From an uncultured Actinomycetota bacterium (lineage in GTDB: Bacteria; Actinomycetota; Geothermincolia; Geothermincolales; Geothermincolaceae), in assembly GCA_964515075.1 (NCBI GenBank), contig CAZETE010000004.1, positions 3,353 through 67,352 of the forward strand: a stretch of 64,000 nt of DNA, read 5' to 3'. A program made the translations under genes and the position numbers. Shown here in pieces: positions 7,004 through 52,803 of this stretch. Every line of letters starts with the position of its first letter. The stretch's first letter is position 1. The notes under the pieces were generated by a model. The model did no database searches, was not told where the DNA came from, and saw only the letters and a list, made by a program, of their open reading frames with translations.

Positions 7004-7162
7004 GCTCGGGTCTCCTCGTCTTTACGCTCCGGGCGGGCGCGGTCCAGGTGCATTGTAGCACACGGCCGGGACATCCCGGAGGGCCGGGCGGGCGCGGGGT
7101 TTTGTCCCGGGTAGCGGCTATACTCGGGGCGTTGAGGCGGCCCGGCGGATGGGAGGTCCCGC

Positions 7163-8536
7163 TTGAAGCCCAGGAGCGTTTTCGTCTGCAGCGAGTGCGG
7201 CGGCTCGGCGGTGAAGTGGCTGGGCCGCTGCCCGGAGTGCGGCGAGTACGGCACCATGCAGGAGGAGCGGGCCGCGCCGCCCCCCGGCTCCCCTTCCGGC
7301 CGGGCCCCCCTGCGCTCCGTCCGGCGCGACCCCCTCCCCCTCTCCTCGCTGGAGGGCGGCGGGGAGGAGCGCCGCTCCACCGGCCTGGCCGAGCTCGACC
7401 GGGTGCTGGGCGGGGGCATGGTGCGGGGCTCGGTGGTGCTCGTGGGGGGCGAGCCGGGCATCGGCAAGTCCACCCTGCTGCTGCAGGCGGCCAGCCGGCT
7501 GGCCGGGGCGGGGCGGCGGGTGCTCCTGGTCAGCGGCGAGGAGTCCTGCGCCCAGGTCCGCATGCGGGCGGAGCGCCTGGACGCCGTCTCGCCCGACCTC
7601 TTCCTCTTCTGCGAGACCGGGCTGCCCGAGGTGGTGGAGGCCGTCGAGGGCATGCTGCCCGAGGTGGTGGTGGTCGACTCCATCCAGACCCTGGCCAGCC
7701 CGGAGGTCGCCTCCCCCCCCGGGGGGGTGAGCCAGCTGCGGGAGTGCGCCCTGCGCCTGCAGGCGCTGGCCAAGGAGCGGGGCGTCACCACCTTCCTGGT
7801 GGGCCACGTCACCAAGGACGGCTCGCTGGCCGGGCCGCGCGTGCTCGAGCACATGGTGGACACGGTCCTCTACTTCGAGGGCGAACGCCACGGCTCCGTG
7901 CGCATCCTGCGCGCCTCCAAGAACCGCTTCGGCTCCGTCTCCGAGGTGGGCGTGTTCGAGATGGGCGACTCCGGCCTGCGGGAGGTGGAGGACCCCTCCC
8001 TCCTCTTCAGCCGCCTGCGCCCGGAAGGGGTCTCGGGCGTCGCCCCGGTCATCGCCATGGAGGGCAGGCGCCCCCTGCTGGTGGAGGTGCAGGCGCTGGT
8101 CACCCCCACCTCCCTGCCGGTGCCCAAGCGGGTGGCCTCCGGACTGGACCAGCGGCGCTTCGCCCTCGACCTGGCGGTGCTGGAGAAGCGGGCCCGCCTG
8201 AGCTTCTTCGACCACGACGTCTTCTGCGGCACCGCCGGCGGGCTGCAGGTGGCGGAGCCCGCGTGCGACCTGGCCATCTGCCTGGCGGTGGCCTCCTCCC
8301 GGCTGGACGCGCCCCTGCCCGCGCACCTCGCCTGCTGCGGCGAGGTCAGCCTGGCCGGGGAGGTGCGCCCGGTCTCCCGCACGGAAGAGCGGGTGCGCGA
8401 GGCCCGGCGGCTCGGCTTCTCCGGGATGCTGGTCCCCGAGGCCGGGGAGGCTCCGGAGGGCGGGCGGGGGTTCAGGCTCGAGCGGGTGGGCGACATCCGC
8501 GCCGCCCTGCGCGCCTGCGGCCTGGGCGCCGATTGA
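7163..8536 (+). CDS. radA: DNA repair protein RadA/Sms
   Basis: A 457 aa ORF with an N-terminal zinc ribbon (CSECGGSAVKWLGRCPECGEY), a RecA-like ATPase with Walker A (GEPGIGKST) and a Lon-protease-like C-terminus. Confidence 0.93.
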   Translation: MKPRSVFVCSECGGSAVKWLGRCPECGEYGTMQEERAAPPPGSPSGRAPLRSVRRDPLPLSSLEGGGEERRSTGLAELDRVLGGGMVRGSVVLVGGEPGIGKSTLLLQAASRLAGAGRRVLLVSGEESCAQVRMRAERLDAVSPDLFLFCETGLPEVVEAVEGMLPEVVVVDSIQTLASPEVASPPGGVSQLRECALRLQALAKERGVTTFLVGHVTKDGSLAGPRVLEHMVDTVLYFEGERHGSVRILRASKNRFGSVSEVGVFEMGDSGLREVEDPSLLFSRLRPEGVSGVAPVIAMEGRRPLLVEVQALVTPTSLPVPKRVASGLDQRRFALDLAVLEKRARLSFFDHDVFCGTAGGLQVAEPACDLAICLAVASSRLDAPLPAHLACCGEVSLAGEVRPVSRTEERVREARRLGFSGMLVPEAGEAPEGGRGFRLERVGDIRAALRACGLGAD

Positions 8537-20117: not shown

Positions 20118-20236
20118 GTCGGTCTCCGCCTTCGCCCGCACGGATCTCCTCTCTTTAGCGCGAAAAGTCCTCACATCTTGTAAAATTGTAGGATAAGCCA
20201 TTAGAAAAGGTCAAATCCCCGTGCTATAGTCGGGCT

Positions 20237-20890
20237 ATGGCCTTAGTCGTAGACGTCGAGAGGGAAGGGGTCTCCGCCGCCGCCCGCCGGGCGGCGGCGG
20301 CGCTCGAGGGCGGGGGGCTGGCGGTGCTCCCCACCGACACCGTCTACGGCCTGGCCGCCTCGGTCCACCGGCCGGAAGCGCTGCGGCGCATCTTCGCAGC
20401 CAAGGGGCGGCAGGGGGATAAATCCCTGGTGGTCATGGTCGCCAACGCCGGTGAAGCCGAGGGCCTGGCGGCGGAGGAGGAGCGCGGGTCCCTGAAGCGG
20501 CTGGCCCGCTTCTGGCCGGGCAGGCTGACCGTCGTCATCAGGCGCGGCGCGGCCGCCTGGATGGAGGGGGCGGCGCCGGGAAGGGACTCCTTAGGGCTGC
20601 GCGTGCCCGACCACCCCCTGGCCCTGGCGGTGCTGGCCCTCACCGGGCCCCTGGCGGTCACCAGCGCCAACCGCAGCGGGGGGGAGGCCCCGGTCTCCTT
20701 CGCCGACGTCCCGGCGAGCATCCTGGAGGCGGCGGACGTCGCCTGTTTCTCCCGCCACCCGGGGGAAGGGACTCCCTCCACCGTGGTGGAGGCCGGGGCC
20801 TCGGGGCTTAAGATCCTCCGCCAGGGCGCCATCACCCTCCCCGAGCTGGAGAAGGCCTGGCGCGGGGAGGCCCCGGACCGGCCCGCCTGA
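20237..20890 (+). CDS. tsaC: L-threonylcarbamoyladenylate synthase (YrdC/YwlC/TsaC family)
   Basis: A 217 aa ORF (..LAVLPTDTVYGLAASV.., ..TSANRSG..). Confidence 0.8.
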   Translation: MALVVDVEREGVSAAARRAAAALEGGGLAVLPTDTVYGLAASVHRPEALRRIFAAKGRQGDKSLVVMVANAGEAEGLAAEEERGSLKRLARFWPGRLTVVIRRGAAAWMEGAAPGRDSLGLRVPDHPLALAVLALTGPLAVTSANRSGGEAPVSFADVPASILEAADVACFSRHPGEGTPSTVVEAGASGLKILRQGAITLPELEKAWRGEAPDRPA

Positions 20891-36478: not shown

Positions 36479-37333
36479 CTACAGGTCGCCCAGCTCCGTG
36501 CTGAGCCGGCGGAACTCCTCGTCCAGCAGCAGCAGCCGGTCCATCAACTCGGCGAAACCCGGGGGCAGGCCGTAATCCGACTGGAAGAAGGAGACGAGGT
36601 GCTCGGCCAGCCTGGAGTACATCCTGTCCGGGGCCCCTGCGTCGCCGGCCTGGACGTCGTCCCTCCCTTCCCGGAGGATGTCCCGCACGCCCGCGAAGAG
36701 CTTGATGAAATAGTCGGCGAAGGCCGCCGTTCCCTCCCCGGCCTCCGCCTGCAGGGCCTTTATGCAGGCCTCCGCCAAGTCGACGTCCCTGTCGATGGCC
36801 GCCAGGAGGTCGGCCCGCGGGGCGGCCGGCGCGCCCTCCTTGAAGGTCTCCATGCCCTGCACGAAGAACCCGTCCAGGATGGGGGAGATGTTGTAGAGTT
36901 GGTCGTAGGCCGACTCGAAGTCGCCCATCAGGGCCTGGCCGTTGCGGAAGAAGTCGAGCAGGCCGGCGTGGAAGTCCCGCAGCCCGCCCGGGGGCCTGGC
37001 CTTCTCCATCTCCCGGAGGGAGTCCGCGAAGAGCCTCTTCAGCTTCTGCGAGGTCTCCAGCCCCCTGATGGCCACCTGTTTGAAATCCTCCTCCGCCCCC
37101 CGCCCCTCGAGCTGCGAGAAGAGCGTGTCGGCCTCCTTGCCGAAGCGCCTGTAGGCGTCCCTGGCGGCGGCGGCGTACTCCTCCCGGCTCATCTCGCCGC
37201 AGCCCGACAGGGCGGCGGCGAGCAGCGCCACGGCGGCGAGCAGCGCCGCGGCGCGGGCGGCGCGGGCCCGTCCGGGCAGCCCGGCTTCGTCGAGGGCCTT
37301 CCCTGGTCTCATCTTCAGAAAATCATAGCACAT
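36479..37333 (-). CDS. lipoprotein of unknown function
   Basis: A signal peptide with lipobox (LLAAALSGC) followed by a helical, acidic domain. The start is probably the internal MRPGK. Confidence 0.5.
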   Translation of the reverse strand: MCYDFLKMRPGKALDEAGLPGRARAARAAALLAAVALLAAALSGCGEMSREEYAAAARDAYRRFGKEADTLFSQLEGRGAEEDFKQVAIRGLETSQKLKRLFADSLREMEKARPPGGLRDFHAGLLDFFRNGQALMGDFESAYDQLYNISPILDGFFVQGMETFKEGAPAAPRADLLAAIDRDVDLAEACIKALQAEAGEGTAAFADYFIKLFAGVRDILREGRDDVQAGDAGAPDRMYSRLAEHLVSFFQSDYGLPPGFAELMDRLLLLDEEFRRLSTELGDL

Positions 37334-37449: not shown

Positions 37450-37698
37450 ATGAGCAAGGACACCGGTTACACCGCCAGGGACATCTACAAGGTGCGGATC
37501 AGCAAGGGGTTCGTGGATGCCGACTTCGGAGAGGGCTTCCTGGTCGAGATCTGGGACTTCCGCACGCAGCGCATCGTCTACGGGGAGAAGTTTCACGACC
37601 TGGAGCGCGCCCGGCGGGTGGAGAAGGAGATCAAGGGCGACCTGGAGGCCATGACCCTCGACCGCTTCCAGCAGAACTACCTCAAGCGCAGGCCCTGA
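37450..37698 (+). CDS. small hypothetical protein (82 aa)
   Basis: MSKDTGYTARDIYKVRISKGFVDADFGEGFLVEIWDFRTQRIVYGEKFHDLERARRVEKEIKGDLEAMTLDRFQQNYLKRRP. The composition is protein-like, but I recognise no family. Confidence 0.4.
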   Translation: MSKDTGYTARDIYKVRISKGFVDADFGEGFLVEIWDFRTQRIVYGEKFHDLERARRVEKEIKGDLEAMTLDRFQQNYLKRRP

Positions 37699-37718: not shown

Positions 37719-38699
37719 TCAGTCCGCGTACATCTTCAGCAGGTTGTTGACCCTGCGCAGGACGTCCCGCCGCAGTTCCTCGGGCTCCAGGATCTCCACC
37801 TCGGTGCCGTAGCGCAGCAGCTCCTTCTCCAGCCAGGCCAGGTTCTCGGCGTAGAGGGTGCACAGCACCGACCCGTCCTTCTGCCGCTTCTTCCGGGAGA
37901 ACATGTCCTGCTCCATGACCCAGTTGGCGTAGAAGGGGGCGAAGCGCAGGCGGACTTGGCGTCCCTTGAACCTCGAGGGATCGACGGGAAAGCCCTTCAG
38001 GGCCTCCCGCTCCATGAACTCCTCCGGCTTGAACTTCCTCGCCAGCAGCTTGATCTCCCGGATGCGGTCCACGCGGAAGAGGCGGTTCTCGCCCGAGAGG
38101 TGGTCCCAGCCCAGCACGTACCAGTTGCCCGAGCCGAAGAGCAGGTTGAGGGGGTTGAGGCGGCGGCTGGTGAGCGCGTCCCGGCCCGAGCTCAAGTATT
38201 CCATCTCCACCTGGCGCCGCTCGTCCAGGGCCTGCCGCAGCAGCTGCAGCCGGGGGTGGTCGGGATGGTCCGGGCGGATCTCCACCGCGTCCGCCACCGC
38301 CGCCAGGCCCGCCTTCTCCCCCGGGAGCAGCGCCCTCTCCAGCTTGGAGAGGGCCGACTGGAAGGTGGCCGCCTCCTTCAGCCCCGCCAGGTCGGACAGG
38401 GCCCGCCCGGCCAGGTACAGCGAGATGAGCTCGCCGGCGGTGAAGCGGAAGGGGCGGGAGAAGTAGTCGGCCATGCGGATGAAGATGCCCTCCCCCTCGA
38501 AGACCACCTCGATGAGGTCGCCGGGGGTGTACTCCGGCTTGCCGCACAGGTTGACCAGTTCCAGTTCCTTGAGCAGGTCGCCGCGGGCGATGCGGAAGAC
38601 CCGGCAGAGCTCGTCCACCTTGACCCCGGGATGCTGCACGATGTAGGGGATCAGGTTGAGCAGGCGGTAGATCTGGGAATCGGTCCTGGCCACGCTCAT
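37719..38699 (-). CDS. HTH-WYL-WCX transcriptional regulator (PafC-like, second of a tandem pair)
   Basis: A 326 aa ORF: MSVARTDSQIYRLLNLIPYIVQH... (wHTH), then the WYL region (..RRLNPLNLLFGSGNWYVLGWDHLSGENRLFRVDRI..). Its start overlaps the stop of the upstream gene (ATGA). Confidence 0.78.
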   Translation of the reverse strand: MSVARTDSQIYRLLNLIPYIVQHPGVKVDELCRVFRIARGDLLKELELVNLCGKPEYTPGDLIEVVFEGEGIFIRMADYFSRPFRFTAGELISLYLAGRALSDLAGLKEAATFQSALSKLERALLPGEKAGLAAVADAVEIRPDHPDHPRLQLLRQALDERRQVEMEYLSSGRDALTSRRLNPLNLLFGSGNWYVLGWDHLSGENRLFRVDRIREIKLLARKFKPEEFMEREALKGFPVDPSRFKGRQVRLRFAPFYANWVMEQDMFSRKKRQKDGSVLCTLYAENLAWLEKELLRYGTEVEILEPEELRRDVLRRVNNLLKMYAD

Positions 38700-39712
38700 C
38701 CCTTCCTCGCGCCGAGGGCCGCCTTGATCTCCTTGAGGCGCGCGCGCATGGCCTCCCGCACCTGGGGGGGGTCGAGTATCTCCGCGTCCTCCCCGAAGGA
38801 GAGGGCCCAGGCCAGCAGGGTGTCCCGGCTCCTGGCCTTGAGGGTGAGGATGCCGCCCCCGTCCTTCTGCCGCTTGAAGGCATAGCCGTAGGAAGCGACG
38901 TTCTCCTTCACCCACCAGGCCACCTTGGGGGAGAAGCGCATGGTCACCTTGAACTCCGGCGAGTCCTCGAACTGCCAGGGCGGCTTGGCGGAATAGTCGC
39001 GCACCCGGAAGCCTTCGGGCCTTGCGAAGTCGGGCGCCTTGGACCTGGCTTCCGGGATCTCCACCTCTCCGTGCATGCGGGACACCCGGAAGCAGCGGAT
39101 GTCCGAGCGCAGGCGGCAGAAGCCCACCATGTACCAGCTGCCGTGCTCGAAGAAGAGGCCGTAGGGGTCGGCCTCGCGCCCCTGGGGCTCCGCGTCGTGC
39201 AGGGAGAGGTAATCGAAGCGCACCCTCTTCTGGTCGATGACCGCGCGCAGCAGCACCTGCAGGCGCTCCTCCGCCCGGCCGTCCCCGGTGATGCACCAGT
39301 CCATGGTGGGCAGCGCGTCCGGCCCGGCCGCGCCCAGGTCCGGTGTCAGCTTGAGCAGCGCCTTGCGGGCGTCCAGGGAGCAGGGGAAGGCTCCCTGCCA
39401 CACCAGCTTATGGAGCAGCCACAGGGCCAGCCGCTCGTCCGGGTCGAAGTCGATCTCCGGCAGGTAGTAAGCGTCCTTGGGGATGCGGTAGCCCTGCTCC
39501 TCCCCGAAGGGGTCGGTCGCCTCCACCTCGATGGGTATGCCCATGTCCCTCAACTCTCGCTTGTCCCGCTCGAACATGCGCTTGAAGGAGTTGATGTCGT
39601 CCTGCTGGTAGCCGCCGACCTTCTCCCGGATCTGCTCCAGGGTTACCGGCACCCGCGCCTCGAGCAGCGCGGTGATCAGGTTGAGCTGCCGTTCGGTCTT
39701 CCTCCTGCTCAC
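38696..39712 (-). CDS. HTH-WYL-WCX transcriptional regulator (PafB-like, first of a tandem pair)
   Basis: A 338 aa ORF starting at GTG: VSRRKTERQLNLITALLEARVPVTLEQIREKV... (wHTH), with the WYL region (..ADPYGLFFEHGSWYMVGFCRLRSDIRCFRVSRM..). Confidence 0.78.
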   Translation of the reverse strand: MSRRKTERQLNLITALLEARVPVTLEQIREKVGGYQQDDINSFKRMFERDKRELRDMGIPIEVEATDPFGEEQGYRIPKDAYYLPEIDFDPDERLALWLLHKLVWQGAFPCSLDARKALLKLTPDLGAAGPDALPTMDWCITGDGRAEERLQVLLRAVIDQKRVRFDYLSLHDAEPQGREADPYGLFFEHGSWYMVGFCRLRSDIRCFRVSRMHGEVEIPEARSKAPDFARPEGFRVRDYSAKPPWQFEDSPEFKVTMRFSPKVAWWVKENVASYGYAFKRQKDGGGILTLKARSRDTLLAWALSFGEDAEILDPPQVREAMRARLKEIKAALGARKG

Positions 39713-39784
39713 GTGGTCCCGCCCTCCGGGTAGATGGCTTCCGCCCCTATTATAAGCAAAGGGGGGCCGTAGTAATATAGCATC

Positions 39785-40345
39785 ATGTCCGCGGGTATCG
39801 TCTTCGCCGTTTTCGGCCTGGTCTTCCTGGCCGAGCTGGGGGACAAGACCCAGCTCATCGTGCTCGCCCTGGCGGCCCGGACGCGGGCGCGCACGGTGCT
39901 GGCCGGGGCCTTCTCCGCCTTCTTCCTGTTGGACCTGGCGGCGGTGGCCGCGGGGGCCGCCGTCTACCGCTGGCTGCCCCTGCGGCCGCTGCAGTTGGCG
40001 GCGGGGGGGCTGATGGCCCTCTTCGGCGCCCTCTCCATCCTGGGAAAGGCCGGCGGCCCCGGGGAGGAACGGGCGGGCGGGGGGTCGTTTATCAAGGTGT
40101 TGGGCCTGGTCATGCTGATGGAACTGGGGGACAAGACCCAGCTCACCCTGATGGCCCTCGCGGCCAGCCACGGGGAGCCGGCGTCCGTTTTCGTCGGCGG
40201 CACGCTGGCCCTGTGGACCTCCACGCTGCTGGCGGTGGCCCTGGGCGGGCGGCTCGCGCGGCGGGTCCCCGCGGGCGCCGTCCACAAGGTCTCGGGGGCG
40301 GTCTTCCTCGTCTTCGGCCTGGCCATGATCATGGACCTCGCCTGA
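39785..40345 (+). CDS. GDT1/TMEM165 (UPF0016) family cation (Ca2+/Mn2+):H+ antiporter-like membrane protein
   Basis: A 186 aa ORF with two copies of the E-x-G-D-K-T motif (AELGDKTQLIVLAL; MELGDKTQLTLMAL). Confidence 0.8.
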   Translation: MSAGIVFAVFGLVFLAELGDKTQLIVLALAARTRARTVLAGAFSAFFLLDLAAVAAGAAVYRWLPLRPLQLAAGGLMALFGALSILGKAGGPGEERAGGGSFIKVLGLVMLMELGDKTQLTLMALAASHGEPASVFVGGTLALWTSTLLAVALGGRLARRVPAGAVHKVSGAVFLVFGLAMIMDLA

Positions 40346-45557: not shown

Positions 45558-46220
45558 ATGACCGTCATGAAAAGGCTCTATCGTGCCGGGGGCGGCGCGG
45601 TCCTCGCGGCGCTCTCGTTGCTGGCAATCGTGTATATGGCGGGCTGCGGGTCGCCCCAGGCGCGGCCGGACATGGGGACGGAGACCGTCGACCCGCAGGT
45701 GGCGGCGGACTCCCTCTCCGTGAGGCTCAACGACCTGGAGGGCAAGCAGCAACAGCTGGAGCAGCGCATCCACGAACTGGTCAACCAGCGGCGGGCCGAG
45801 AACGGCCTGGCCGAGATGGCCTGGGAGGAGCGCCTGGCGGAGATCGCCCGCTACCACAGCCGGGACATGGCCGAGCGCTGCTACTTCGACCACCTGAGCC
45901 CGGAGGGCGAGGACTTCACGGCCCGCTACGCCATGTTCGGGTACGACGCCGGCAACCGGGTGGGCGACGTGGTCTACCGCGGGGCGGAGAACCTCTTCCT
46001 CAACAGCCTCTACAGGTCCTACACCTACATCAAGGACACCGGCGAGGTGGTGAAGTACGACTTCAGCACCCTCGAGGAGATCGCCCTGAGCACGGTGGAC
46101 GGGTGGATGGAGAGCGAGGGCCACCGGGAGAACCTGCTCATGCCCCACTTCATCAAGGAGGGCGTCGGCGTGGTCTTTGCCCGCGACGGCAGGATCTACA
46201 TCTCCCAGAACTTCAACTGA
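45558..46220 (+). CDS. CAP/SCP/PR-1-like domain lipoprotein
   Basis: A signal peptide and lipobox (LLAIVYMAGC), then the CAP domain (..ELVNQRRAENGLAEMAWEERLAEIARYHSRDMAERCYFDHLSPEG...HRENLL..). Confidence 0.72.
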   Translation: MTVMKRLYRAGGGAVLAALSLLAIVYMAGCGSPQARPDMGTETVDPQVAADSLSVRLNDLEGKQQQLEQRIHELVNQRRAENGLAEMAWEERLAEIARYHSRDMAERCYFDHLSPEGEDFTARYAMFGYDAGNRVGDVVYRGAENLFLNSLYRSYTYIKDTGEVVKYDFSTLEEIALSTVDGWMESEGHRENLLMPHFIKEGVGVVFARDGRIYISQNFN

Positions 46221-46270
46221 GCCCCTGACCGCGCCGGCGCCGGCACAACGGCCCGCCCGGCCCGCAAGTC

Positions 46271-46298
46271 GCAGGTTCGAGTCCTGCCAGGCGTGCCA
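46271..46298 (+). other. tRNA 3'-end-like fragment (T-arm GCAGG-TTCGAGT-CCTGC, acceptor strand, discriminator, CCA); putative integration-site remnant
   Basis: gcaggttcgagtcctgccaggcgtgcca reproduces the canonical T-stem/loop and 3' acceptor strand ending in CCA. I could not fold a matching 5' half upstream. GC content collapses immediately downstream. Confidence 0.4.
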
Positions 46299-46303
46299 GC
46301 AAT

Positions 46304-47242
46304 TCAAGCGGATGTGCGAGTATCCGCTTTTTCTTTTACATATGCCCTTGCATCGAAACTGAGTCGTATCCTGTAGTGCATGATGGTGACTATTGTCATC
46401 ACTCCGATTTGTGGAATCACAAACATCAGCACAGCAACGGGAATCGACACAACATCCGCCCAAGGATAGACAATCACGAAGGGCAAGCTGATCAGTGCAG
46501 TAATCACACAGACAAGAACAGCATCTTTCTTAAAGCTTATCCGCCTCTCTTTCTTCTTGCGATAGAAATAGTCGGCCAGCGCAACGAGGGAAACGAAGGC
46601 AAGGTAAACTACGACTGCCAATGGATACTCATAAGGCTTAGGCTTATCTAATGATTTGAAATATTCGTCCATTCTTTTATCTTCTTTTTCCAATATATAT
46701 GCCCCAAGACTATCTGCCCAATCAGCCAACTCGTCTTTCCCTTGTTGCTTATAGATTTGACTCAGCAAACCATATCCAGCAGCTTGGCTTGGCTGTCCGT
46801 ATTCAAATGCCAATGCCCTATAAGCAAGGGATTCAGCCTCGTTCAACATCCCATAATCAAGATAGGACATGGCTATAGCAATTAAAGTCGTAAAATCATA
46901 GGGGTTTGCATCAAACGCTTGCTGGAGAATCTCCGATACTCTCTCCCTGTTTCCGATTGAATTGTAGACATCGGCTAGACTTCTATAATCCCAAACAGAG
47001 AAGGACTCCGGGTCAAGCGCATAAGCTTTTTCATAGAGGCTTATAGCTTCTCTTGCCTCTTCTTGGGTAATCGAGTCCAAGCCCTTCTTGGTTATTGAAT
47101 CTGCTTGATCGATCAGCTTCTGTGCTTCGTCTTTCGATTGATCCTGTTGCGCCAATACTCCAACATTTGAGGTGGCCATAGCGGTGCACAGCAAAATAGA
47201 CCCAACGGTCAAGGCCTTCTTCCAAATGCCAAATGCATTCAT
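46304..47242 (-). CDS. secreted/membrane TPR-repeat protein (low-GC, foreign)
   Basis: The start is taken at MNAFGIWKKALTVGSILLCTAMA (signal peptide). It has TPR-like repeats and two C-terminal transmembrane helices. Confidence 0.55.
   Translation of the reverse strand: MNAFGIWKKALTVGSILLCTAMATSNVGVLAQQDQSKDEAQKLIDQADSITKKGLDSITQEEAREAISLYEKAYALDPESFSVWDYRSLADVYNSIGNRERVSEILQQAFDANPYDFTTLIAIAMSYLDYGMLNEAESLAYRALAFEYGQPSQAAGYGLLSQIYKQQGKDELADWADSLGAYILEKEDKRMDEYFKSLDKPKPYEYPLAVVVYLAFVSLVALADYFYRKKKERRISFKKDAVLVCVITALISLPFVIVYPWADVVSIPVAVLMFVIPQIGVMTIVTIMHYRIRLSFDARAYVKEKADTRTSA
46308..46337 (+). terminator. intrinsic terminator GCGGAT-GTGCGAGT-ATCCGC TTTTTCTTTT (for the CAP-domain gene)
   Basis: A 6-bp stem, an 8-nt loop and a 10-nt T-rich run. 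It lies within the 3' end of the convergent TPR gene. Confidence 0.5.
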
Positions 47243-47549
47243 ACTTAGCCTGCTCAGTTTATCGTCCTTTCTTCCCACAAAGCGAATGCCCCCTTTTCGC
47301 AAGTATTCTACCATCCATCAAGCCAGCATTGCTTTTCTACTCATCCCCACCCTCAGCTGGCGATACCCAGTATGGGGATACTGTAATCCTGTTCTGCGTT
47401 CATCAGTCTGGTTCGAACTTCGTCCACAGTGGGGTGCCAAATACAATAGTAAATCAGAGGGTATTACCTTCGTCCTGCTCTTAATGGGCCATGTTCCTTA
47501 TTAATTACCGTGCGATTTGTGTGCTACATGGTCACGCGCAAGGCGAGCC

Positions 47550-47921
47550 TCAGTCGTTTATTGCGTCCAACGCCCGTTGGCGTATCCTGTCTCGCTCTAT
47601 CACGGTGAACATCCCGGTCAAGGTAATGCTCTGCTCTCGAAGTATGCCTGACAAGATCTCTCCGGCTTCGTCCGGAGAAGCCGGAGCGAAGCGGAAGTAG
47701 ACGATGCCGTTGACATTGCGCGCCTTGTGCCGGAAGATCAGCTCTCCGTAATCACGGTCAAAGGTCAGGATGATACGATCCTCTTCGATTGCCCGTTCGA
47801 GCACTTGCCGGTCTGTCGCGCCAGGCATTTCGTCAGCGATACGAAGGACGTCATGACCACTCTCCTCGAGCAGCCTGGTACTTGACCGGGGAATGTTTTC
47901 GTTGGCAAGGAAGTCCATCAC
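47550..47921 (-). CDS. DUF5615 (COG4634) PIN-like putative toxin
   Basis: MMDFLANENIPRSSTRLLEESGHDVL...ILTFDRDYGELIF... is typical of DUF5615. Confidence 0.7.
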   Translation of the reverse strand: MMDFLANENIPRSSTRLLEESGHDVLRIADEMPGATDRQVLERAIEEDRIILTFDRDYGELIFRHKARNVNGIVYFRFAPASPDEAGEILSGILREQSITLTGMFTVIERDRIRQRALDAIND

Positions 47922-48163
47922 ACGGCTTTGGAGTCAAGAGGATAAAGGGATTCCTCACGCATGCATTCGGTCGCGAAGGCGAATATCGCCCGGATGTTCT
48001 CGGCAATAAGATTGGGGTACTCCTCAAGCACCCTGCTTTCCGTCCAGCCCTCGGCGAACAGGCCCAGGATAAATTCGACTGAGAGCCGGGTTCCTTTGAC
48101 CACGGGCTTGCCCATCAATACATCGGGATCAGAGGTAATAGTTTTTCTCCAATCGACTTCCAT
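47918..48163 (-). CDS. DUF433 (COG2442) putative antitoxin
   Basis: ..VLMGKPVVKGTRLSVEFILGLFAEGWTESRVLEEYPNLIAENIRAIFAFA.. Its stop overlaps the DUF5615 start (ATGA). Confidence 0.7.
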   Translation of the reverse strand: MEVDWRKTITSDPDVLMGKPVVKGTRLSVEFILGLFAEGWTESRVLEEYPNLIAENIRAIFAFATECMREESLYPLDSKAV

Positions 48164-48231
48164 CACGACTCCTTCCTTACAGGTATAGCGTACCACAAAG
48201 AAAAGACGGGGTCAGTCCGGGGTCCCGGGGC

Positions 48232-51243: not shown

Positions 51244-52803
51244 TCAGGCGTCGGCCGGGTAGAAGAAGAGCCCCACGGTGCCGGGGCCGGTGTGCGAGCC
51301 GATGACCGGGCCGGTCTCGTTGACGAGGATGCTTCCGGCCTCGCAGCCGAACGCCTCGGCCACCAGCTCCTTCAGGGCCTGGCCGGCCCGCTCGTCGGAG
51401 ACGTGGGTGACGCCCAGCACCGGCCGGCGGCCGCCCAGGTCCTCCTTGGCCAGCTCGACGATGCGCGCCACCGCCTTCTGGGTGCCCCGGGCCTTCTCCT
51501 TGGCGTCGATGGTACCGTGGATGGTCAGGATGGGCTTGACCTTGAGCACGCCGCCCAGGAAGGCCTGCGCCCCCCCGATGCGCCCCCCCTTGCGCAGGTA
51601 CTCCAGGGTGTCCACGGCGAAGTAGACCTTCGACCCGTCGACGACGGCCCGGAGCCGCTCCACGACGGCGTCGAGGTCCGCGCCGTCCCGGATCATCCCG
51701 AGGGCCTCCTCGATGAGCATGTAGATGCCCATGGAGGTGGACATGGAGTCCACCACCTCGATGCGGGTGCCCGCCATCTCGGCGGCGGCGGAGCGCGCCG
51801 ACTCCATGGTGCCGCTGATCCCCCCGGAGATGTGGATGGAGAGGATCTGCTCGTACCTGCCGGCCATCTCCTTGTACGCCTCCGAGAACTCGCCCACGCT
51901 GGGCTGGGAGGTGGTGGGAAACCCGTCGAAGGCCTTGAGTTTTGAGAAGAACTCCTCGTGCGTGAGGTCGACTCCCTCGCAGAAGGACTCGTCCGCGAAG
52001 ATGACCTTCAGCGGGACCACCTTGATATCGCGCTCGCGCACGTAATCCTCGTCCAGGTACGCGGTGCTGTCGGTCACTATGCCAATTTTCCCCGCCAATT
52101 CGCACTCCCCTTTCCTTGGTCCTCGCCTCTCCTCCATCAGGGAACAGGCCGCGCGCGCGGCCATCTGTTCGGCCTCCTTCTTGCTGCGCCCCTCTCCCTG
52201 CCCCGCCTTCTCCCCTCCCAGCCACACCTCGGCGTGGAAGAGCTTAGCGTGGTCCGGGCCCTCGCCCCAGGCGCGGTAGGCGGGCAGCACGCCGCGGGCC
52301 TTGACGGACCACTCCTGCAGCCGGGTCTTGTAGTCGGAGCGCGGGCCCCGGCTCGCCGCCTCCCGCATGCGCTCCCCCAGGACCCTCTCCACCAGCCTGC
52401 CGGCCTCCTCCAGGCCCTTGTCCAGGTAGACCGCCCCGATGAGGGCCTCCAGGGCGTCGGCCAGGACTGATTCCTTGCCCCGGGCGCCGTCCGACTCCGC
52501 CGACGGGCTGAGCAGTATGTGCTCCCCCAGGCCCGCCTCGCCCGCCGCCCGCGCCAGGGCCGCGTCGCTGACCAGCCAGGCCCGGGCCTTGGTGAGGTCG
52601 CCTTCCGCGGCCTCCGGGTCGCTGCGGTAGAGGTAGTCGGTGACCACCATCCCGAGCACCGCGTCGCCGAGGAACTCCAGCCGCTCGAAGGAGCCGGCGG
52701 CCCCGCCTCCCTGCCAGTGGGCGCGCGAGCGGTGGGTCAGGGCCAGCTCCAGCAGCCCCTTGTCGCGGAAGTCCAGCCCCAGGGATGCCTCGAGGTCCCC
52801 CAT
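51244..52803 (-). CDS. rnc: ribonuclease III fused in-frame to a DegV/FakB fatty-acid-binding domain
   Basis: The first 234 aa form a complete RNase III (..ERLEFLGDAVLG.., dsRBD ..KKEAEQMAARAACSLMEE). With no stop codon, a complete DegV follows (..KIGIVTDSTAYLDEDYVRERDIKVVPL....VGLFFYPADA). The internal sequence GGGGAG-N6-TTG at about 52096 could also allow separate DegV initiation. Confidence 0.75.
   Translation of the reverse strand: MGDLEASLGLDFRDKGLLELALTHRSRAHWQGGGAAGSFERLEFLGDAVLGMVVTDYLYRSDPEAAEGDLTKARAWLVSDAALARAAGEAGLGEHILLSPSAESDGARGKESVLADALEALIGAVYLDKGLEEAGRLVERVLGERMREAASRGPRSDYKTRLQEWSVKARGVLPAYRAWGEGPDHAKLFHAEVWLGGEKAGQGEGRSKKEAEQMAARAACSLMEERRGPRKGECELAGKIGIVTDSTAYLDEDYVRERDIKVVPLKVIFADESFCEGVDLTHEEFFSKLKAFDGFPTTSQPSVGEFSEAYKEMAGRYEQILSIHISGGISGTMESARSAAAEMAGTRIEVVDSMSTSMGIYMLIEEALGMIRDGADLDAVVERLRAVVDGSKVYFAVDTLEYLRKGGRIGGAQAFLGGVLKVKPILTIHGTIDAKEKARGTQKAVARIVELAKEDLGGRRPVLGVTHVSDERAGQALKELVAEAFGCEAGSILVNETGPVIGSHTGPGTVGLFFYPADA

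Follow-up and report, generated by a model that had tools for sequence, protein, structure and literature searches.

The stretch of DNA analyzed here, hereafter the window, is 64 kb long and carries on its minus strand two tandem genes, pafB and then pafC, at exactly the coordinates given in a preliminary description of the locus. The same description had presented them as adjacent, ATGA-overlapping genes for HTH-WYL-WCX proteins, an arrangement confirmed by direct reading of the sequence, by Pfam searches and by alignment of the wHTH domain of PafB (table 1). The overlap of start and stop codons in this ATGA implies translational coupling of the two genes, which remain tightly linked in all the relatives examined, the two overlapping by up to 14 nt or lying up to 4 nt apart. 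Both deduced proteins are identical to public gene calls on an NCBI contig of 86,269 bp (exact protein match).

Table 1. Features of the pafBC locus and of the radA region, in window coordinates
Feature	Position	Strand	Details
Candidate match facing gltX	7052..7073	-	second TGTCCCGG-N8-TACAAT match; probably not a PafBC site
Candidate PafBC-dependent promoter of radA	7103..7124	+	TGTCCCGG (-26 element), 8 nt, TATACT (-10); ends 39 nt upstream of the radA start (7163)
radA, predicted regulon member	7163..8536	+	457 aa; Pfam zinc ribbon, KaiC/AAA_25 and ChlI domains; homologues named RadA/Sms
Conserved ORF convergent with pafC	37450..37698	+	82 aa; putative; syntenic neighbor, membership in the system not implied
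pafC orthologue	37719..38699	-	326 aa; ATG start; HTH_PafC aa 9-122, nt 38334-38675; WYL aa 151-217, nt 38049-38249; WCX aa 247-320, nt 37740-37961
ATGA overlap	38696..38699	-	pafC ATG and pafB TGA; direct sequence reading
pafB orthologue	38696..39712	-	338 aa; GTG start; wHTH aa ~3-76; WYL aa 151-214, nt 39071-39262; WCX aa 254-329, nt 38726-38953
pafB RBS	39727-39722	-	GGAGGG, 9 nt upstream of the GTG start
pafB-GDT1 spacer	39713..39784		72 bp; contains the pafB RBS and AT-rich -10-like boxes
GDT1-family cation transporter gene	39785-40345	+	divergent from pafB

The surrounding genome had been described as Firmicutes-like, a premise that has to be corrected. The GC content of the window is 69%, and 66-74% in every 2-kb bin save for an island at 46-48 kb; all 11 of the genome relatives of PafC that carry a label come from Actinomycetota MAGs, the closest relatives of PafB lie in Actinomycetota MAGs too, and RadA is 59% identical to its counterparts in such MAGs, 56% to that of Ca. 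Solincola (class Geothermincolia) and 51% to those of Firmicutes. Since the genome is actinobacterial, the apparent taxonomic surprise disappears: the pair occurs in Actinomycetota, as is characteristic of PafBC.

Domains, orthology and functional residues

Pfam recognizes WYL (2.9e-22) and WCX (5.6e-17) domains in PafB, and HTH_PafC (3.2e-29), WYL (1.7e-20) and WCX (5.9e-15) domains in PafC. The HTH_PafC domain is confined to the downstream protein of the pair, and no Pfam HTH was found in PafB; the N-terminus of the latter can nevertheless be aligned, beginning at residue 3, with the wHTH domain of Mycobacterium smegmatis (Msm) PafB, and residues 3-76 of its AlphaFold2 monomer model (pLDDT 80.7) form a bundle of three helices and a wing. 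In phmmer comparisons, the match between PafB and its M. smegmatis counterpart (chain 7p5x_AY) is full-length, with 4.6e-36, while PafC matches M. smegmatis PafC 7p5x_AX with 2.7e-33 as against only 6.9e-11 for PafB, and the C-terminal half of the fused PafBC of A. aurescens (6sj9) with 2e-34. A Foldseek search with the PafB model returned as top match the PafB chain bound to RNAP (9fnd_X, 1.3e-22), ahead of DriD, CapW and BrxR. The two proteins of the pair are paralogous to each other in the WYL-WCX part only (33% identity, 3e-19), their N-terminal domains being unlike. JGI names their homologues proteasome accessory factor B or C, and NCBIfam gave zero matches for either protein. The earlier statement that the pair mirrors PafBC can therefore be strengthened, given the reciprocal best matches, the domain content and the gene order: judged from these sequence comparisons, the two genes are true orthologues of pafB and pafC, beyond mere likeness to PafBC.

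The residues known to be functionally important are also in place. R45 and R49 of PafB align with R46 and R50 of Msm PafB, the arginines that read the GTC triplet (PMC8635444, PMC6789036), and are invariant, together with F47, across 121 homologues. Its R179, Y194, R202, R206, R209 and R212 align with R181, Y196, R204, R208, R211 and R214 of Msm PafB; R179, W193, Y194, R206 and R212 show no variation in the same 121 homologues, where R202 and R209 are almost invariant as well. In PafC, R209 and R212 align with Msm PafC R201 and R204 and are present in 120 of 121 homologues. The WYL residues of Msm PafB and PafC have a role in ssDNA binding (PMC11804915), and GTC readout, ssDNA binding and activation depend on the Msm equivalents of the conserved residues (PMC8635444, PMC11804915, PMC6789036). 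A lack of WYL ligand-binding residues would have told against PafBC function; by alignment with the Msm proteins, both these and the DNA-reading residues are intact. In place of WYL, the eponymous triplet is WYM in PafB and WYV in PafC, and the aromatics Y254/Y255 of the Msm PafC WCX domain, which line the ssDNA tunnel, correspond to Q264/D265 in the present PafC.

Gene neighborhood and PafBC-type promoter sites

The genes around pafBC have housekeeping functions (UppP, a CoA-ligase-like protein, GDT1 and DHDPS), in a synteny that is conserved from 100% down to 42% identity. Every clade member with a PafC identity of 42% or more has an ORF of 82-91 aa at the same position, convergent with pafC; in the window it has no Pfam or PADLOC match. 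Rfam and tRNA scans of the window returned nothing. The spacer between pafB and GDT1 contains neither a PafBC-type motif nor a canonical sigma-70 match, which fits the report that pafBC is not autoregulated in mycobacteria (PMC8223512). Pup-ligase, Pup, proteasome and ARC/Mpa domains are lacking among the approximately 50 ORFs of the window, which covers 37 kb to one side of the pair and 24 kb to the other; six relatives likewise have none in the 8-10 kb around pafBC. The association of pafBC with pafA and the PPS genes has been described as tight, though not universal as an operon (PMC8223512). The pair is a stand-alone bicistron, unlike the mycobacterial arrangement downstream of pafA and near tatA/tatC/helY; this is the one departure from the textbook picture, concerning a contextual rather than a mechanistic feature of PafBC.

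The strict mycobacterial promoter motif, TGTCRGTG-N8-TAnnnT, has 0 matches in the window even when 1 mismatch is allowed, and we relaxed it to the conserved core given in the literature. Because TGTCCCGG-N8-TAnnnT with 2 mismatches occurs at chance level (12 matches vs 11.6 expected), exact-core matches alone were considered. The pattern TGTC-N12-TAnnnT has 3 matches in the 64 kb, against 0.96 expected, and one of these lies before radA. There all 4 of the 4 clade members retain the motif in the form TGTC-N12-TAtAaT, at a background rate of 0.007 matches per kb per strand, and the architecture upstream of radA is the same in the window and in the relatives L103, L020 and L021, whose RadA proteins are 78, 75 and 70% identical, respectively. 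The spacers have otherwise diverged, and the distance from motif to start varies between 39 and 99 nt, yet TGTC is always exactly 12 nt from the -10. The next relatives have TGAC in place of TGTC (L104) or lack a site at the correct spacing (L105), and none of 78 more remote radA loci has the architecture. A scan of the radA spacer for sigma-70 -35/-10 promoters found none and no -35 element, and the candidate promoter is without a TGn extended -10. With respect to the PafBC promoter signature (-26 tGTCgg, N10, tA-N3-T, no -35), the window thus has 0 strict matches and a relaxed pattern conserved at radA. The radA-disA operon of mycobacteria is induced independently of RecA (PMC3900455); a literature search turned up no explicit statement joining RecA-NDp with radA. 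On the basis of the relaxed pattern and its conservation in four related genomes, we predict that the radA promoter is PafBC-dependent.

The preliminary description had named recG, radA, katG and rubrerythrin as plausible targets and had proposed a search for the RecA-NDp motif before recA, radA and recG. Of this proposal the radA part stands, with its conserved PafBC-type promoter, while GTC-N12-TAnnnT is absent upstream of recG, katG and rubrerythrin; recA, the canonical target, lies outside the 64-kb window. Other matches were rejected. In the site facing gltX, TGTC is absent in L020 and L021, and the conserved part is an extended -10 (TGTGCTAcAAT). The GTC-N12-TAnnnT match before a Sua5/TsaC-family gene (20210) also coincides with an extended -10 and has no conservation support, as is the case for two matches inside the low-GC island (45564 and 48207).

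When applied to the relatives, the same scan detected the canonical form TGTCACTG-N8-TAGCAT next to pafBC in 10 loci belonging to a sister clade, where the positions of the sites are syntenically fixed; in another clade, 3 loci have a motif site before an exonuclease-like gene. From this we conclude that the PafBC-type motif is in use across these lineages. The canonical promoter of the sister clade, divergent from pafB, precedes a conserved unannotated protein of 107 aa with two hydrophobic segments; tblastn found nothing like it in the window or its close relatives. This small protein may tentatively be considered a damage-induced membrane effector, e.g. an inhibitor of cell division comparable to DidA, YneA or ChiZ.

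Alternative readings of the pair and of the radA site

How else could these observations be interpreted? WYL regulators also govern phage-defence or mobile-element modules, as BrxR and CapW do, and the preliminary description had hinted at such a link; the pair would then be a repressor released by ssDNA. Generic 'WYL' models of PADLOC (CRISPR-associated signalling) do match both PafB and PafC, and the WYL-WCX regulators of defence islands share their fold (Foldseek CapW 4e-10, BrxR 1e-8). Nevertheless, similarity to PafB and PafC is better than that to CapW and BrxR by more than 20 orders of magnitude, and the latter are single-gene homodimers, not B/C pairs. Four neighboring proteins have no PADLOC match, the conserved synteny is that of housekeeping genes, and in roughly 20 loci examined no BREX, CBASS, CRISPR or other defence genes adjoin the orthologues, which are thus not embedded in the CRISPR or BREX context that would have pointed elsewhere. 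The only low-GC island of the window (46.2-48.2 kb), 6.5 kb from the pair, contains a DUF433/DUF5615 pair and no defence system regulated in cis. We regard a role in defence as very improbable. Slightly less remote, though still improbable, is a PafBC-derived regulator re-purposed for neighboring stress genes (the divergent GDT1, and katG and rubrerythrin at a distance of 1.5-4 kb), which would respond to oxidative or metal stress without controlling a global DNA-damage regulon. The divergent orientation of GDT1 and pafB is seen in the window and also in relatives with as little as 59% PafC identity, katG and rubrerythrin are close by, and the mycobacterial PafBC regulon includes oxidative-stress genes (PMC8223512). 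However, GTC-N12-TAnnnT occurs neither in the pafB-GDT1 spacer nor upstream of katG or rubrerythrin, and the one conserved motif site of the window is 30 kb away, at radA. Moreover, GDT1 is swapped for other genes in the clade of 42-46% identity while pafBC and the downstream synteny persist, and in L017 and L018 the corresponding place has neither katG nor rubrerythrin.

A more serious alternative, which we consider possible without favoring it, concerns the radA site alone: this might be an ordinary housekeeping promoter with TGTC conserved by descent, PafBC acting on other targets. The site is supported by just four related genomes, with no exact match in L104 and L105, and the similar gltX-facing match in the same spacer is unconserved and coincides with an extended -10. 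Conservation by descent does not easily account for a TGTC that stays 12 nt from the -10 while the length and sequence of the spacer have diverged; nor is there a -35 or a TGn extended -10 to explain initiation without an activator, and mycobacterial radA is damage-induced in a RecA-independent manner (PMC3900455).

Proposed mechanism and relation to known systems

In our judgment it is highly probable that the pair codes for PafB and PafC as subunits of the LexA-independent regulator by which actinobacteria respond to DNA damage, in an uncultured, probably anaerobic, high-GC lineage of Actinomycetota. For its action we propose the following mechanism, drawn by analogy with the solved M. smegmatis system. 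We infer from this analogy that the translationally coupled products would form a heterodimer, and that ssDNA generated by damage would bind the arginine-lined groove of the PafB WYL domain, where the residues are conserved, and thread to the WYL/WCX domains of PafC. [quoted passage not shown] The recognition helix of PafB (R45/R49) would read the GTC of a -26 element located 8 nt upstream of a normal -10, and promoters without a -35 would thereby be switched on. At least one such promoter is predicted in the window, at radA, its -26 element being the clade-specific variant TGTCCCGG. Some observations speak against this reading: the pair has no linkage with pafA or the PPS genes, the strict mycobacterial motif has no match in the window, the radA site is imperfect in L104 and missing at the correct spacing in L105, and the tunnel aromatics of PafC are replaced.

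PafBC is already known and well described in structure and mechanism; a further lineage with intact key residues mainly extends its range, is mostly ordinary and changes basic understanding little. In evolutionary terms, a clade in which pafBC and the pupylation locus are not linked is relevant to the question of how the regulator came to be associated with the Pup-proteasome. It is conceivable, if somewhat speculative, that in this deep-branching anaerobic clade PafBC is free-standing, uncoupled from the Pup-proteasome and possibly in genomes lacking it, with a clade-specific -26 element TGTCnCSG; the membrane effector suggested above for the sister clade belongs with this possibility and is equally tentative. 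Were this so, the ssDNA-sensing, sigma-adaptation function would predate, or be independent of, the link with pupylation that gave the proteins their name. The radA promoter variant is testable and may seed regulon prediction in uncultured Actinomycetota.

Among the systems already characterized, the defence-island repressors CapW and BrxR (PDB 7TB6, 9C5G, 7QFZ, 7T8K) have the wHTH-WYL-WCX fold in common with the present pair, and CapW senses ssDNA; yet they are single-gene homodimeric repressors adjoining CBASS or BREX operons, with a far weaker similarity, 4.4e-4 at best by sequence, whereas here there are two different subunits and no defence neighbors. DriD of Caulobacter crescentus (PDB 8TP8, 9PFQ) is closer in function, being an ssDNA-activated, SOS-independent activator of the DNA-damage response with the same fold (Foldseek 1.5e-15). 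It differs from our heteromeric pair in being a single-gene homodimer that binds a palindromic operator and activates didA and other genes of Alphaproteobacteria in a class-II-like manner rather than by sigma adaptation; its similarity in sequence is far weaker (4e-9 for the PafC-like protein, while the PafB-like protein was not detected by phmmer), and the host here is actinobacterial. The natural single-chain PafBC of Arthrobacter aurescens (PDB 6SJ9) has the same domain order, PafB of the window aligning to its residues 4-223 and PafC to residues 345-657, whereas the window encodes two polypeptides coupled only by the ATGA overlap. Compared with PafB-PafC of M. smegmatis and M. tuberculosis (PDB 7P5X, 9FND; Rv2096c/Rv2095c), the present pair shares no operon with pafA, does not lie near that gene and has no tatA/tatC/helY neighbors, its -26 element is TGTCCCGG instead of TGTCRGTG, the WCX aromatic pair of PafC is replaced by Q/D, and the host belongs to a deep-branching lineage of uncultured, apparently anaerobic actinobacteria. 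With the mycobacterial proteins it nevertheless shares the tandem order of separate pafB and pafC genes, roughly 30-40% identity over the full length, the wHTH-WYL-WCX architecture with a PafC-specific HTH, the equivalents of PafB R46/R50, the WYL arginines in both subunits and a predicted hybrid promoter (-26 GTC plus -10, no -35) before a DNA-repair gene.

Identity of the tandem WYL regulators

The two minus-strand genes share the ATGA at 38699-38696, which is common to the stop of the upstream and the start of the downstream gene, so that the translationally coupled pair reported in the preliminary description is confirmed with its exact positions. Both are taken as real because their codon-position GC fits (GC3 around 0.9, in a window of ~69% GC), and public gene calls contain both products with identical sequence. 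The downstream product has the Pfam domains HTH_PafC (3.2e-29), WYL (1.7e-20) and WCX (5.9e-15); the upstream product has WYL (2.9e-22) and WCX (5.6e-17), with no HTH recognized by Pfam. From its residue 3 onward the latter can be aligned to the M. smegmatis PafB winged HTH, and its AlphaFold2 model (mean pLDDT 80.7) has three helices (3-18, 25-31, 40-56) and a two-strand wing, followed by a five-strand WYL barrel and then the WCX domain.

Searched against all PDB sequences, the upstream product finds its best match in M. smegmatis PafB (7p5x_AY / 9fnd_X, residues 3-328, 4.6e-36) and also matches the N-terminal half of the fused A. aurescens PafBC (6sj9), while the downstream product matches PafC (7p5x_AX, 2.7e-33) and the C-terminal half of 6sj9 (2e-34), and PafB only at 6.9e-11. 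Given the upstream model, Foldseek places PafB from the RNAP-PafBC complex at the top (1.3e-22), followed by 6sj9, DriD, CapW and BrxR. Paralogy between the two products is confined to WYL-WCX (33% identity), as described for PafB and PafC, and JGI annotates database homologues as proteasome accessory factor B or C. By the order and coupling of the genes, their domains and their reciprocal similarity, the products are orthologues of PafB and PafC, and the pair, which had been said to mirror PafBC, is, judged by sequence, a true pafB-pafC operon.

The two guanines of the promoter GTC triplet are read by PafB R46 and R50 (PMC8635444; PMC6789036), and ssDNA binding requires each of PafB R181, Y196, R204, R208, R211 and R214; PafC R201 and R204 face the ssDNA, and W250, Y254 and Y255 line the PafC tunnel, their mutants being only mildly affected (PMC11804915). 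In HMMER alignments these M. smegmatis residues correspond to R45 and R49, to R179, Y194, R202, R206, R209 and R212 of window PafB, and to R209, R212 and W260 of window PafC, whereas Y254 and Y255 are not conserved (Q264, D265). In MAFFT alignments of 121 homologues for each protein, PafB R45, F47, R49, R179, W193, Y194, R206 and R212 are invariant, and PafC R209/R212 occur in 120. The WYL ligand-binding residues, on which the preliminary description had made its PafBC reading depend, are retained in both alignments, and the DNA-reading residues are likewise intact. By analogy with M. smegmatis structures and biochemistry, the products would form a heterodimer in which ssDNA engages the PafB WYL groove first and then spans to PafC; the activated dimer would wedge between DNA and domain 4 of sigma-A (sigma adaptation), with PafB R45/R49 reading GTC at -26.

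Host and genomic neighbourhood

The pair had attracted interest mainly as lying in a Firmicutes-like genome, which is an error. GC is 66-74% in each 2-kb bin, one island excepted; all 11 labelled PafC relatives in genome collections are Actinomycetota MAGs; and RadA has its closest named relatives in Actinomycetota MAGs (59%) and in Candidatus Solincola sediminis (56%), from Ca. Geothermincolia, a class of the same phylum, with Firmicutes RadA reaching 51%. The presence of aldehyde:ferredoxin oxidoreductase, HcyBio with NIL-ferredoxin, and rubrerythrin suggests from gene content that the host is an anaerobe.

Housekeeping genes in the window include gltX, radA, cysS, clpC, lysS, greA, glyA, uppP, rnc, plsX and recG, among others, and none of its ~50 ORFs has Pup-ligase, Pup, proteasome or ARC/Mpa domains. 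Gene order runs from a divergent GDT1-family transporter through pafB, pafC, an 82-aa ORF, a 284-aa ORF and an acyl-CoA-synthetase-like gene (ADP-forming type) to uppP; neither the 82-aa nor the 284-aa ORF has a Pfam or PADLOC match. This pafB-to-uppP segment is kept in relatives from 100% to 42% PafC identity, save the ~284-aa ORF in L101; a 39% relative (L102) has instead kept tatA/tatC/helY beside pafBC, the M. tuberculosis arrangement. In L101, sbcD/sbcC-like genes (Metallophos + SMC_N/AAA_23; L101:1-2968) lie ~4 kb upstream of pafBC. Elsewhere in the window, a low-GC island (46200-48200; 41-57% GC vs ~69%), which has a CAP-domain protein gene on one side and a GH116-like gene on the other and is absent at the equivalent position in relative L017, is probably a horizontally acquired insertion.

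Features of the window and promoter sites in relatives' loci (L-numbers; percentages are RadA or PafC identity)
Feature	Position	Strand	Details
pafB	39712-38696	-	338 aa; GTG start at 39712, TGA 38698-38696; GGAGGG nine nt 5' of start
pafC	38699-37719	-	326 aa; ATG 38699-38697, TGA 37721-37719
82-aa ORF	37450-37698	+	convergent with pafC; position shared by all clade members with PafC identity of 42% or more
284-aa ORF	36479-37333	-	adjoins 82-aa ORF; kept in most clade members, not called in L101 (42%)
Candidate PafBC site at radA	7103-7124	+	TGTCCCGGGTAGCGGCTATACT; ends 39 nt before radA start
gltX-facing match	7052-7073	-	TGTCCCGGCCGTGTGCTACAAT
gltX extended -10	7052-7073	-	TGTGCTACAAT; kept in L020 and L021
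Sua5/TsaC-family extended -10	20210-20230	+	GTGCTATAGT; ends 7 nt before start codon at 20237
336-aa TPR + membrane protein	46304-47314	-	in low-GC island
DUF5615	47550-47921	-	overlaps DUF433; putative toxin-antitoxin module next to TPR protein gene in low-GC island
DUF433	47918-48196	-	overlaps DUF5615; same module
RNase III-DegV fusion ORF	51244-52803	-	Ribonuclease_3 + dsrm + DegV fatty-acid-binding domain; same fusion called in L017
Site 5' of radA, L103 (78%)			TGTCCCGGGGGGCGGATATAAT
Site 5' of radA, L020 (75%)			TGTCGCCGCCCTCGCCTATAAT
Site 5' of radA, L021 (70%)			TGTCACCGTCCCGGCCTATAAT
Site 5' of radA, L104 (67%)			TGACACTG-N8-TAGAAT; one core mismatch
Sites before 167-aa ORF	L013:12045, L014:12150, L015:11000	+	TGTC-N12-TAC(T/G)(G/T)T; 6 nt before GTG

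Candidate PafBC-type promoter sites at radA and in other clades

The ChIP-derived PafBC consensus is tGTCgg-N10-tA-N3-T, of which GTC alone is strictly conserved across actinobacteria (PMC8635444). The RecA-NDp motif search proposed in the preliminary description gave no match in the window with the strict pattern TGTCRGTG-N8-TAnnnT at up to one mismatch, and a candidate site at radA with the relaxed TGTC-N12-TAnnnT. The relaxed pattern has three window matches, where 0.96 would be expected; the 159-bp spacer between gltX and radA contains two of these, back to back, and no sigma-70 -35/-10 promoter. Among radA loci fetched from metagenomes and genomes and ordered by RadA identity to the window, the radA site is kept in L103, L020 and L021, whose spacers are of unequal lengths and alignable only poorly outside it; the candidate hybrid promoter architecture at radA is conserved. 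The exact match is absent 5' of radA in L105 (59%), and 78 loci of lower RadA identity, at most about 55%, have no site upstream of radA; the background over 837 kb amounts to 0.007 matches per kb on each strand.

On this sequence evidence radA is probably a PafBC target, in agreement with the damage-induced, RecA-independent expression of the mycobacterial radA-disA operon (PMC3900455). The other targets that had been proposed, recG (an operon-internal gene), katG and rubrerythrin, have no GTC-N12-TAnnnT upstream. The spacer upstream of pafB also has none, which fits the constant PafBC levels reported in mycobacteria (PMC8223512). The gltX-side match was discarded: its TGTC is not conserved, and the element kept is an extended -10, TGTGCTAcAAT. 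Such promoters (TGnTAnnnT) apparently serve gltX and a Sua5/TsaC-family gene, whose mRNA the short distance to the start codon suggests to be leaderless.

These lineages clearly use the motif class, to judge from 16 matches in pafBC loci of other clades. Ten, of the form TGTCAC(T/C)G-N8-TA(G/C)CAT, occupy a single syntenic position ~50 nt upstream of pafB, facing away from it, in a sister clade (L006-L012, L019, L100, L101; PafC 42-47% identical). This promoter, a canonical one of the PafBC type, is followed there by a conserved ORF of 107-108 aa (92 aa and divergent in L101) with two hydrophobic segments (e.g. L008:8557-8942, minus strand) and a C-terminal ...PLPAS..RQSCRVP motif, which has no Pfam match and whose opposite strand is annotated by gene callers. 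Its product is possibly a small membrane protein induced by damage, to be compared with the division inhibitors DidA, YneA and ChiZ; its coding status is uncertain because codon differences show only a moderate third-position excess (2041 vs 1551 and 1475 at first and second) and because in L019 there is an aldolase-like ORF that overlaps it at the 3' end. Three further matches precede a 167-aa ORF (MIGYLDIETSF...NGESFDLP...YNRDDV), 1-2 kb downstream of pafC in L013-L015 (38-40% clade), which resembles a DnaQ/RNase-H-like exonuclease and whose transcript appears leaderless.

Alternative readings and comparison with known PafBC

The pair might instead be a local stress regulator of GDT1, katG and rubrerythrin, a reading weakened by the absence of motif sites at these three genes and by neighbours that are not conserved. 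A defence-island regulator, akin to the phage-defence link once suggested, is rejected, genomic context and similarity both being against it: PADLOC hits in the two proteins are to generic WYL models only, the four neighbour proteins have none, and the pafB-uppP synteny is conserved. The consistent defence context that would have refuted the preliminary reading is not seen. As for the radA site, it could be an ordinary promoter conserved by descent, which we hold to be rather unlikely and which would leave the pafB-pafC identity unaffected.

The pafB-pafC pair is a further member of a known, well-characterised family, in the phylum where it is expected. What interest remains comes from its separation from the pupylation locus, from a -26 element variant specific to the clade and from the by-products in related loci. 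Mycobacterial pafBC shares an operon with pafA (PMC8223512), whereas the pafBC described here is unlinked from the pupylation locus, and this is its one real departure from the textbook.
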